A DNA stretch of 8,093 nt, taken from IMG/VR virus record IMGVR_UViG_2630968500_000006; one strand, written 5' to 3'. The stretch comes from a virus (lineage: Duplodnaviria > Heunggongvirae > Uroviricota > Caudoviricetes). Both the position numbers and the translations under genes were made by a program. The notes below the pieces were generated by a model that saw nothing but the letters and a program-made list of their open reading frames with translations, made no database searches and had not been told where the DNA came from. The number at the start of each line of letters is the position of its first letter. Within the stretch, counting starts at the first letter, position 1. This document shows, piece by piece, positions 2,833-8,093 of this stretch.

Positions 2833-3012
2833 ATGGCACGCAAATACAACAAATTGTCCCGTGAAGCGTTAAAGATGCTTCTTGATGGCGTGAGTCGCCG
2901 CAAGGTAAAGCAATACCTGGTTAGTAAGCAAATTGGTGCCAGGACCGCTATTGCTGTGTTATGCCGTCAGGAAATGGTTGTGCTTAAACAGAGAATGCCG
3001 GGCAGCAGATAA
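2833..3012 (+). CDS. Hypothetical small basic protein (59 aa from ATG 2833; the track ORF starts at 2812 inside doc); positionally equivalent to a P1 post-doc gene (pdcA?), assigned by synteny only
   Basis: ORF in the track (2812..3012). The ATG at 2833 lies 5 nt after the doc stop and is preceded by GGAG (2822-2825), whereas the ATG at 2812 is inside doc with no Shine-Dalgarno. Product MARKYNKLSREALKMLLDGVSRRKVKQYLVSKQIGARTAIAVLCRQEMVVLKQRMPGSR is lysine/arginine-rich. No recognisable motif. Confidence 0.45.
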   Translation: MARKYNKLSREALKMLLDGVSRRKVKQYLVSKQIGARTAIAVLCRQEMVVLKQRMPGSR

Positions 3013-4084: not shown

Positions 4085-4126
4085 ATTGCTCTAATGTATT
4101 GCTATTTCTTTAGTTGAGGGTATTAT
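4085..4126 (+). promoter_or_regulatory. C1-repressor operator-like 17-mer (4085-4101, ATTGCTCTAATGTATTG) overlapping a sigma70-like promoter (-35 TTGCTA 4099-4104, 16-bp spacer, -10 TATTAT 4121-4126) upstream of lpa
   Basis: 14/17 match to the P1 C1 operator consensus ATTGCTCTAATAAATTT as I recall it. The operator overlaps the -35 of a well-spaced promoter. P1 lpa (gene 10) is known to be C1-controlled. Confidence 0.55.
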
Positions 4127-5904: not shown

Positions 5905-7418
5905 TGGCCAGAAGTTGCGTAACGGATCCACGTTGGCGCGAGCTGGTGGCGCTATATCGTTATGACTGGATTGCGGCCGCTGATGTTTTGTTCGGCAAAA
6001 CACCTACCTGGCAGCAGGATCTGATTATTGAGTCTGTGCAGGAACAGGGTAGCAAGACATCTGTTTCGTCTGGTCACGGTACCGGGAAATCAGACATGAC
6101 TTCTATCATGATCATGTTGTTCATAATCATGTATCCCGGTGCCCGCGCCATTATCGTTGCGAACAAAATTCAGCAGGTAATGACCGGTATATTCAAGTAC
6201 ATCAAGATAAACTGGGCTACTGCCACCAGCCGTTTTCCATGGCTTGCTGATTATTTTGTTCTGACAGAAACCGCTTTCTATGAGGTTACTGGTAAAGGTG
6301 TATGGACTGTAGTACCGAAGGGCTTTCGTCTGGGAAGTGAAGAAGCTCTCGCCGGTGAACACGCAGATCATCTTCTGTATATTATCGATGAAGCCTCCGG
6401 TGTCAGTGATAGAGCTTTCGGTATCATCACCGGTGCTCTTACCGGACAGGATAACCGCATCTTATTACTGTCACAGCCTACACGCCCAAGCGGCTATTTC
6501 TACGATACTCACCATAAACTGGCCAAGCGTCCTGGTAACCCAGATGGCGTTTATACGGCGATCACGCTTAACAGTGAGGAATCACCGCTGGTAACGCCAG
6601 AATTTATCAAAATGAAGCTGGCGGAGTACGGCGGGCGTGATAACCCTATGTACATGATTAAGGTGCGCGGCCTATTCCCTAAATCACAGGACGGCTTCCT
6701 TCTTGGACGTGATGAGGTTGAACGTGCAACGCGGCGGAAAGTTAAGATTGCCAAAGGATGGGGCTGGCTTGCATGTGTGGACGTTGCTGGTGGTACGGGA
6801 CGGGATAAGTCAGTTATCAATATCATGATGGTGTCCGGCCAGCGAAATAAACGCCGTGTAATCAACTATCGAATGCTGGAATACACAGACGTTACAGAAA
6901 CGCAGCTTGCCGCCAAAATTTTCGCAGAATGTAATCCTGAGCGATTCCCCAATATCACCATAGCGATAGATGGAGATGGCCTGGGTAAAGCAACAGCGGA
7001 TCTGATGTACGAGTATTATGGTATTACCGTACAGCGTATACGCTGGGGTAAAAAGATGCATAGCCGTGAAGATAAGAGCCTGTACTTTGATAAACGTGCT
7101 TATGCCAACGTTCAAGCCGCAGAGGCCGTAAAATCTGGTCGTATGAGACTGGATAAGGGTAATGAAACTATTGAGGAAGCGTCGAAAATCCCTGTAGGGA
7201 TTAACTCCGCAGGTCAATGGAAGGTGATGAGTAAGGAGGATATGAAGAAAAAACTCAACCTGCACTCACCAGACCATTGGGATACATATTGTTTCGCTAT
7301 GCTGGCGGATTATGTTCCCCAGGATGAAGTGCTTAGCGTCGAAGACGAAGCGCAGGTTGATGAGGCTCTGGCATGGCTTAATGAATTAATATTTGCTCTA
7401 ATAAATTGTGTTTTTTAA
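5904..7418 (+). CDS. pacB: PacB, terminase large subunit (ATPase/nuclease), 504 aa
   Basis: 504-aa ORF translationally coupled to pacA. P-loop/Walker A-like SGHGTGKS and Walker B-like [10 protein letters not shown]. Position and size as in P1. Confidence 0.93.
7392..7408. promoter_or_regulatory. C1-repressor operator-like 17-mer TTTGCTCTAATAAATTG overlapping the last codons of pacB
   Basis: 15/17 match to ATTGCTCTAATAAATTT. It shares the 10-mer TTGCTCTAAT with the lpa operator at 4085-4101. Two occurrences of such a 10-mer in 8 kb are very unlikely by chance. Confidence 0.45.
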
Positions 7419-7533
7419 CTACCGATGTTACATTGAGCCTGACCTCTTGCGCCTTGAGGCATTTTCGGTTTATGCTTATCAGGCACCTCATTAAAACGGG
7501 TGCCGGGATTGGCCTCCCGCTTAAGTCTAAGGC

Positions 7534-7567
7534 GATACAGACGCCGCTCGCGTCTTTTTTTTGTATC
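7534..7567 (+). terminator. Candidate rho-independent terminator downstream of pacB: GACGC-CGCTC-GCGTC hairpin followed by T8, nested within an outer GATACA/TGTATC inverted repeat
   Basis: Inner stem 7540-7544 / 7550-7554, then eight T (7555-7562). Outer arms GATACA 7534-7539 and TGTATC 7562-7567. On the minus strand the run is A-rich before the hairpin, so it is oriented for plus-strand termination. Confidence 0.5.
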
Positions 7568-7727
7568 GGCGTACACGCACACCTCTACAATGGTGGGCTG
7601 TATGGGGCTACCTTCGGGTAGGCTGGTTACCTTGGACGCCAGTAAGGCCAACTCCGTACAGTCCACCGCCAGCAAGATTGGTCTCTTCTGCGGTGGTTAC
7701 ATACCAACGTCTAAGGAGGCTGCCAAT

Positions 7728-7949
7728 ATGGCTACTATCCCTACCCCAACTCATCCTGAATTTATCTGGCGCTTTTACTCCTGCCAAAAACGTCACTATC
7801 ACTTCGTTATTGCACCAACAGAAGATGAGGCCCGCTCTCAGCTTCCTGACGCCCCATGTATTTTCTCTGCCCGTTTTTCCACTGATTCACGCAATTCTCT
7901 CAGTTACTGGTGCCTCCCTGTTAACGCTTCTGCTCAGGAGGGACTATGA
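7728..7949 (+). CDS. Hypothetical small protein, 73 aa
   Basis: ATG at 7728 preceded by a consensus Shine-Dalgarno AAGGAGG (7713-7719) with 8-nt spacing. It is the 3' part of the 149-aa track ORF 7500..7949, whose upstream portion spans the terminator and lacks a ribosome-binding site. Product MATIPTPTHPEFIWRFYSCQKRHYHFVIAPTEDEARSQLPDAPCIFSARF... has no motif I recognise. Confidence 0.4.
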   Translation: MATIPTPTHPEFIWRFYSCQKRHYHFVIAPTEDEARSQLPDAPCIFSARFSTDSRNSLSYWCLPVNASAQEGL

Positions 7950-8056
7950 GAACGTCATTAGTCACCCGTGAAGAGATGATCGAGGCAATTGAACAGCACA
8001 CTGCCTGTATCAGTACCAGGGATATACCAGGCGTTATTGCCAACTACTTCATGTGA
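7946..8056 (+). CDS. Hypothetical very small protein, 36 aa, translationally coupled to the preceding ORF
   Basis: ATG 7946-7948 overlaps the upstream stop (ATGA) and is preceded by GGAGGG (7938-7943). Product MRTSLVTREEMIEAIEQHTACISTRDIPGVIANYFM. All three plus-strand frames close between 8054 and 8093. Not in the ORF track, presumably because it falls below the length cutoff. Confidence 0.25.
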   Translation: MRTSLVTREEMIEAIEQHTACISTRDIPGVIANYFM

Positions 8057-8093
8057 CCTGCCCCCACGATTAGATACAACACTCAGTTAGTAA

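Follow-up and report, generated by a model that had tools for sequence, protein, structure and literature searches.

Phages P1 and P7 encode, in the immI region, the C4 antisense RNA, which was described in 1990 (Citron & Schuster, cited in both PMC8198154 and PMC12197685); the same two papers summarise its mechanism. To judge from the title of Hartmann 1995, as cited in PMC4919922, the P1/P7 RNA is cut from a longer precursor, and RNase P forms its 5' end. Part of a related arrangement has been studied in Gifsy-1, in the isrK-STnc1160(orf45)-anrP locus. There, the antirepressor gene is driven by the isrK promoter, some transcripts pass the IsrK terminator, a stable processed RNA downstream of IsrK (STnc1160) depends on the isrK promoter, and IsrK activates antirepressor translation in trans (PMC4825925). 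The same paper names as a structural analogue the P4 CI RNA with seqA and seqC, an RNA processed from the leader of its own operon, with complementary sites upstream and downstream (PMC4825925). Unlike C4, the P4 CI RNA causes premature transcription termination of replication genes rather than occlusion of a Shine-Dalgarno (SD) sequence before an antirepressor, and the likeness is one of description. The CI RNA is a substrate of RNase P. For C4, Biere, Citron and Schuster are said to have described in 1992 how translational repression of icd leads to premature termination before ant.

The window analysed here is a whole stretch of 8,093 nt from the IMG/VR virus record IMGVR_UViG_2630968500_000006 (Caudoviricetes). 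A stretch of plasmid NZ_CP060066.1 of E. coli G5 matches it at 100% identity, phage vB_EcoM-673R5 at 99% and RCS47 at 87%, and in all three the cassette described below lies between pacB and c1. An Rfam scan of positions 7000-8093 gave two full-length matches above the curated thresholds, one to C4 and one to isrK. The C4 antisense RNA model (RF01695) matches 7586-7673 on the plus strand with 75.9 bits (gathering score 45), and the match covers model positions 1-87 of 87 (E = 8e-15). An ARAGORN cloverleaf search of the window found 0 tRNA or tmRNA genes. The stretch at 7568-7727 thus very probably contains a C4-type antisense RNA gene together with the leader on which the RNA would act, in a P1 immI-like cassette in the pacB/c1 interval of a P1-derived plasmid. 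A preliminary description of this stretch, made from the letters alone, had offered the alternatives of a structured 5' leader or a small RNA; both apply, in that the gene of the C4 small RNA lies inside the leader of icd and the antirepressor gene. The C4 RNA at 7592-7670 adds an unremarkable example to a family that has been described; it is already known and not novel. All of the testable hallmarks of that family are present, namely the model score, a covarying fold, targets for the a' and b' recognition elements, a duplicate set of these targets in a1 and b1, and an antirepressor gene downstream. The features are collected in Table 1.

Table 1. Features of the immI-like cassette and its flanks, numbered from the first letter of the window.
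Feature	Position	Strand	Remarks
C1-operator-like 17-mer TTTGCTCTAATAAATTG	7392-7408	+	in last pacB codons; 2 mismatches to ATTGCTCTAATAAATTT; aligns with P1 Oc4/Op51; predicted
Candidate cassette promoter	7447-7476	+	-35 TTGCGC 7447-7452, 18-nt spacer, -10 TATGCT 7471-7476; predicted start ~7483; putative
IsrK-family sRNA ("a1/b1" element)	7483-7560	+	RF01394, 60.8 bits vs gathering score 50, full length
a1 TTGGCCT	7509-7515	+	in loop of hairpin 2 of the IsrK element; 7/7 Watson-Crick with a'
b1 GTCTAAGG	7525-7532	+	single-stranded linker of the IsrK-family element; pairs with b', one G.U
Intrinsic terminator of IsrK-family sRNA	7539-7555 + T run	+	terminator scan
TACAAT	7586-7591	+	leader just 5' of predicted mature C4 end; RNase P cut by analogy with P1
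Mature C4 RNA, predicted	7592-7670	+	79 nt; G7592 to about C7670, ends by analogy with P1 annotation
C4 basal stem	7592-7607/7652-7667	+	16 bp; MFE fold and RF01695
C4 hairpin 1	7608-7612/7617-7621	+	UUCG loop
C4 hairpin 2	7622-7627/7638-7643	+	10-nt loop with b' CCUUGGAC (7630-7637)
a' AGGCCAA	7645-7651	+	single-stranded junction of C4
C4 3' tail GCC(A)	7668-7671	+	directly after basal stem
Alternative hairpin CCACCGC/GCGGTGG	7663-7669/7690-7696	+	a2 in loop
a2 TTGGTCT	7678-7684	+	7/7 with a', one G.U
b2 GTCTAAGG	7709-7716	+	8/8 with b', one G.U; overlaps icd SD TAAGGAGG 7712-7719
icd	7728-7949	+	73-aa cell-division inhibitor; first ORF under predicted C4 control
Antirepressor gene, first 36 codons	7946-8053	+	ATG overlaps icd stop (ATGA), as in P1 icd/ant1
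ISSen4 end (IS3 family)	8054-8093		inserted in antirepressor gene

Like the c4 RNA of P1 and P7, the RNA predicted here belongs to the same covariance-model family and has the same three-part fold, in which the junction carries a' and the hairpin-2 loop carries b'; sites a1 and b1 lie upstream, a2 and b2 lie downstream, and b2 falls on the SD of icd. The annotated immI of P1 (Oc4, P51a/b, a1, b1, c4, a2, b2, icd and ant1) and the window cassette are colinear, with a shared order of operator, a1b1, c4, icd and ant and the same ATGA overlap between icd and ant. However, the window cassette is found between pacB and c1 rather than beside sim/kilA-repL, and its stem sequences differ from those of P1, which scores only 43.9 bits on a model of the window type. 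The specificity of a' and b' also differs from that of P1, the element ahead of C4 is matched by isrK rather than by c4-a1b1, and the antirepressor is an ORF6N/KilAC protein rather than Ant1/Ant2.

Gifsy-1 has an identical arrangement, consisting of a terminated IsrK, a C4-family RNA about 25 nt further on, a2, b2 on an SD, and an ORF. In the Gifsy-1 locus (L099, 34131-34329, minus strand), isrK occupies 34316-34240 and is overlapped by a c4-a1b1 match, a C4 match of 69 bits occupies 34214-34131, and a2, b2, the SD and anrP follow. Judged by its sequence, the Gifsy-1 orf45/STnc1160 RNA is a C4 homologue, a description that PMC4825925 does not give it. Unlike the window, Gifsy-1 lacks icd, the next ORF being the antirepressor gene (or the proposed orf45), and its a' and b' alleles are of the ACGCCAA and CGGUGAU types. 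In Stx-converting, lambdoid and P22-like phages, isrK and C4 likewise precede Rha/Ant antirepressor genes; in LC710660.1, for example, the public record lists both RNAs. The Stx/lambdoid type is about 78-79% identical to the window over 7484-7730 and has the same basal stem. However, its hairpin 1 and both of its recognition loops differ from those of the window, with compensating changes in the targets, and the next gene is the antirepressor itself, without icd.

Annotation of these RNAs varies between records. The records that best match the window (vB_EcoM-673R5, RCS47 and NZ_CP060066.1) give only CDSs here; RNA genes are in any case absent from the PLSDB gene table. In several other phage records, over-long CDSs are drawn across the homologous RNA region. 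CDSs cover both isrK and C4 in SfV (L091, 545-1381), Salmonella phage 118970_sal3 (L092, 551-1693) and an Stx1 phage (L093, 677-1699), and these antirepressor or 'regulator' CDSs are probably over-long ORF calls.

The MFE fold of 7586-7673 is the family structure of RF01695. On the plus strand this segment folds with -41.6 kcal/mol (z = -3.53), a stability reached by 0 of 200 dinucleotide shuffles, and on the minus strand z is -1.15, with 26 of 200 shuffles equally good; the entire stretch of 7568-7727 gives z = -2.38. Folding of both strands was one of the checks proposed in the preliminary description, and it comes out in favour of structure on the plus strand. The elements named there are all present, with coordinates off by no more than 2 bases. 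The UUCG-type hairpin, placed at 7608-7620, is CTACCTTCGGGTAG (CTACC-TTCG-GGTAG) at 7608-7621, and it is hairpin 1 of C4. The palindrome GGTTACC occurs at 7625-7631, but it does not form a hairpin of its own; part of it belongs to the 5' arm of hairpin 2 and part to the b' loop. The complementary segments CCACCGC and GCGGTGG, reported at 7665-7671 and 7689-7695, are found at 7663-7669 and 7690-7696, where they form a conserved alternative hairpin that displays a2. The stretch does end in an SD, which is TAAGGAGG and stands 8 nt ahead of the ATG at 7728.

Covariation across relatives, also proposed as a check, was positive. A covariance model was built from five gap-free aligned sequences and the MFE structure, and a search with this model found C4 in 85 of 87 loci, in one or two copies each and with 87 matches in total. 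The sample of 87 loci is biased to close relatives; eight distant phages (SfV, Salmonella 118970_sal3, an Stx1 phage, Hafnia yong2, phiP27, phiv142-3, Tyrion and phi296) and Gifsy-1 were added, and isrK followed by C4 lies upstream of the antirepressor gene in all eight of the phages. Among 15 distinct sequences, 100% of the cells hold standard pairs, and 12 of the 27 pairs are changed on both sides. With 21 distinct sequences, 99.6% of the cells are paired and the number of pairs changed on both sides rises to 15 of 27, including all five pairs of hairpin 1 (UUCG/GAAA). As a control, the 3' partners in the set of 15 were slid by 1-3 columns, which left only 33-51% pairing. Although the alignments were fitted to the model, the covariation signal appears to be real, because these slid controls and the independent Rfam matches argue that it is.

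The pattern of substitution also bears on whether the stretch could be protein-coding, either as an N-terminal extension of icd (ORF 7500-7949, with a GTG start) or as ORF 7561-7971, a reading that merits next to no credence. It is true that, ahead of the ATG, the reading frame of icd runs open for 90 codons in the window and 71 in Stx phage F039, and that several phage records annotate long CDSs over the homologous region. However, the upstream icd frame is open for just 6-11 codons in five other types (RCS47, D6, L023, P1 and L060), and a coding capacity of the two ORFs was rejected on this ground. Moreover, the substitutions are paired compensatory changes in stems rather than third-position changes, the ATG at 7728 has a strong SD 8 nt in front of it, and the Icd of P1 is annotated as a protein of 73 aa from the equivalent ATG.

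Upstream of the C4 RNA gene is the second Rfam match. The hairpin and T run that the preliminary description took for the pacB terminator are separated from the pacB stop codon (7416-7418) by about 120 nt and belong instead to an sRNA of the IsrK family, a family described as Hfq-binding. This element scores above the isrK threshold, has three hairpins, of which the last is the terminator, and is located directly upstream of a C4-family RNA; the tandem of isrK and C4 is also present in 14 other phages and Gifsy-1. A sub-threshold match to c4-a1b1 (RF03163, 20.5 bits) overlaps the isrK match. It may be, as a tentative proposal on which we would not insist, that the IsrK family and the a1/b1 element of P1 are one device, a terminated decoy that competes with a2/b2 for C4, and that the hairpin at 7663-7696 sets whether a transcript is processed or serves as a target. 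Activation of antirepressor translation by IsrK in trans, as described in Gifsy-1, is the behaviour expected of a decoy with a1 and b1.

The region ahead of the IsrK-family element contains a candidate promoter and a C1-operator-like sequence. The Rfam isrK model begins at 7483, and in D6 a similar pair of hexamers (TTGCGC, 18 nt, TATATT) stands in the same register ahead of its isrK-family element. P51b of P1 aligns with TTGAGG/TATCAG, 6 nt downstream of the candidate promoter at 7447-7476. A consensus scan of 7350-7760 called no sigma-70-like promoters, the candidate at 7447-7476 being likewise uncalled. Two operator-like 17-mers with three or fewer mismatches occur in the window, where 0.03 are expected. 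The second of these, at 4085-4101, has 3 mismatches and lies between the DUF968/pdcB ORF and lpa; it probably corresponds to the C1 operator already known for the lpa promoter. Likeness to the pacB of P1 and P7 ends at 7386, and the last ~10 codons and the stop codon (7386-7418) come from the inserted immI-like cassette.

The terminator lies between a1/b1 and C4, and therefore synthesis of C4 would require either read-through or an unseen promoter. One version of the latter, in which TACAAT is the -10 of a dedicated promoter and the RNA is a primary transcript from ~7598, is very improbable. The hexamer matches the -10 consensus at 5 of 6 positions and lies downstream of the terminator, where a promoter of its own would free C4 synthesis from read-through. 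However, it lacks an acceptable -35 (the best is TTGTAT at 19-nt spacing), 0 sites are called in the scan, and the hexamer is not kept in homologues with the same RNA, being ATCAAT in RCS47, D6 and Stx phages and AATTAT in P1. Doubts about TACAAT as a -10 that were voiced at the outset are borne out by these observations. In addition, the basal stem of 16 bp is 100% paired in all homologues, and a start 6-8 nt beyond TACAAT would cut off its first bases; in Gifsy-1 the downstream RNA is lost when the isrK promoter is deleted (PMC4825925).

A processed C4 RNA that depends on read-through accommodates TACAAT in a different way. Aligned to the annotated P1 c4 RNA, which begins GGTGGGG, the hexamer falls immediately 5' of the mature end. 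Several features of the window C4 are consistent with RNase P, namely a G at +1, a U at -1 and GCCA (7668-7671) after the basal stem. Use of an RCCA motif by RNase P is mentioned in PMC12710915, and the GCCA resembles the RCCA tail of RNase P substrates, which is consistent with the processing of C4 in P1 and P7.

We infer the transcript ends, the processing and the repression by homology, and the following model can be proposed. As in P1 and Gifsy-1, transcription would begin upstream of 7483, and some of it would end at the terminator (7539-7560) to give a short IsrK-like RNA with the decoy sites a1 and b1. Transcripts that read through would hold C4, from which a stable RNA of ~79 nt (7592-7670) would be cut, with RNase P forming its 5' end just past TACAAU. 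The sequence and the covariation show that C4 folds into a long basal stem with two hairpins, the hairpin-2 loop exposing b' and the junction exposing a'. The element a' is complementary to a2, and b' to b2, which overlaps the icd SD. Pairing at these sites would block translation of icd; synthesis of the antirepressor would be blocked too, because its gene is presumably coupled translationally to icd through the ATGA overlap, and the C1 repressor of the prophage would stay active.

The energies of the predicted duplexes are comparable to those of P1. The window a'/a2 duplex has -8.6 kcal/mol (-8.4 for the validated a'/a2 of P1) and the b'/b2 duplex -13.9 kcal/mol (-11.7 for b'/b2 of P1). The a'/a1 duplex of the window type is stronger than a'/a2, at -11.3 kcal/mol. 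When the window a' is set against the targets of P1, RCS47 and Stx phages, a2 pairing drops to between -1.9 and -5.5 kcal/mol, and cross-pairs with these three types are much weaker at one site or more. In 21 of 21 distinct modules, a' and b' pair with their own flanking sites (13-14 of 14 for a1 plus a2, and 15-16 of 16 for b1 plus b2), while only 10 of 386 non-cognate combinations for a and 6 of 412 for b reach the full score. In every one of the 21 modules, b2 abuts or overlaps an SD before a start codon. Sites a2, b1 and b2 of the window each have one G.U with C4, whereas most other alleles are wholly Watson-Crick. The site a2 (TTGGTCT) is a perfect Watson-Crick match to another a' allele, the AGACCAA of Tyrion and phiv142-3. 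It may be that the window a2 is an evolutionary intermediate, or that it is a deliberately weaker target than the decoy a1.

About 10 a' alleles and 16 b' alleles occur in the 21 distinct modules, and the window combines a' AGGCCAA with b' CCUUGGAC. On the scaffold of RCS47 and D6, two a' alleles and two b' alleles are seen in all four combinations; the recognition elements therefore reassort, which suggests that a' and b' alleles do so independently and that the specificity of immunity evolves in a modular manner. The a'/b' pair would set an immunity specificity, and the window C4 is predicted to be orthogonal to, and distinct from, the alleles of P1, P7-like elements, RCS47, D6 and Stx phages. 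On several IMG/VR contigs, a module of the window or RCS47 type coexists with one of the P1 type, as with L020 and L062 on one 97-kb contig, and the presence of two module types on one contig fits orthogonal specificities. In L021, on one IMG/VR contig, two near-identical isrK-C4-icd modules, 98.7% and 99.4% identical to the window, are located at 1358-1445 and 2924-3011, 1566 bp apart. In L080, on another contig, a window-type module (1358-1445) is truncated in icd, and a P1-type immI follows ~0.5 kb on (2363-2448). From their layout, L021 and L080 are read as recombinant or duplicated immunity cassettes.

In the C4 fold, the 3' strand of the basal stem ends with the segment CCACCGC, for which the GCGGTGG downstream is an alternative partner. 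In RNAalifold, 13 distinct leaders give 7 pairs for the resulting hairpin, of which 4 are changed on both sides, although these leaders represent only ~3 independent scaffolds; the evidence for a conserved hairpin at 7663-7696 is modest. Because its 5' arm is a strand of the C4 stem, this hairpin would exclude the C4 fold on the same molecule, and it would therefore form only on unprocessed transcripts, in place of that fold.

Such alternatives are central to a different reading, in which the region is purely cis-acting and consists of a structured icd leader whose alternative folds set translation, without a separate small RNA. The candidate folds for such a switch are the C4 fold, the a2-displaying hairpin that shares a strand with it, and local pairing of the SD region, and the MFE structure of 7568-7727 also joins 7681-7688 to the SD region. 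In Gifsy-1, the homologous locus is explained in part by alternative cis structures, A and B (PMC4825925). However, the P1 homologue is annotated as a discrete 77-nt RNA that acts in trans (P1 GenBank annotation; PMC12197685), and in Salmonella a stable processed STnc1160 arises from the homologous region (PMC4825925). Duplicate target sets, a1/b1 and a2/b2, that covary with a' and b' are predicted by a diffusible determinant and are needless for a local switch. The discrete RNAs of P1 and Salmonella and the duplicated, covarying targets make a leader that acts in cis alone the less likely reading, and overall an improbable one.

Beyond the predicted C4 RNA and its targets, the Icd protein shares 80% identity with its P1 counterpart across 66 aa (E = 3e-41). 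An Icd-like annotation is present in NZ_CP060066.1 and phage 673R5, and a Pfam search of Icd found no family. In the antirepressor gene, likeness to uninterrupted relatives ends at 8053. In NZ_CP060066.1, the ISSen4 transposase gene comes next, followed by the rest of the antirepressor gene, and Pfam identifies ANT/KilAC and ORF6N on this remainder beyond the IS. The C4-controlled antirepressor output is thus probably dead in the NZ_CP060066.1 plasmid, where icd would be the sole remaining output because the antirepressor gene is broken by ISSen4. This interruption also means that the module may be decaying in that plasmid. No second, canonical immI was found in the source plasmid, which has one C4 in 148 kb. 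NZ_CP060066.1 is a 148-kb, IS-riddled remnant of P1 that lacks the canonical immI and most structural genes and carries lacIZY, fecABCDE, dcuB/dcuR and ompC as cargo of a chromosomal type.

As a discovery, the C4 gene of the window carries little weight, given that a curated Rfam model exists and that C4 is already annotated beside isrK in some Stx-phage records; its practical value is in annotation. What is mildly new is the catalogue of a' and b' alleles, the equivalence proposed for IsrK and a1/b1, the assignment of Gifsy-1 STnc1160 to C4, and the conserved alternative hairpin. The comparison of alleles ties the experimentally studied isrK locus of Gifsy-1 to the C4 paradigm of P1, and the allele table could predict cross-immunity at the level of the antirepressor among P1-like plasmids and Stx/lambdoid prophages. 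If IsrK is indeed an a1/b1 decoy, the cassette would be a tunable pair of sponge and antisense RNA, and the orf45/STnc1160 RNA of Gifsy-1 would be a C4 RNA.
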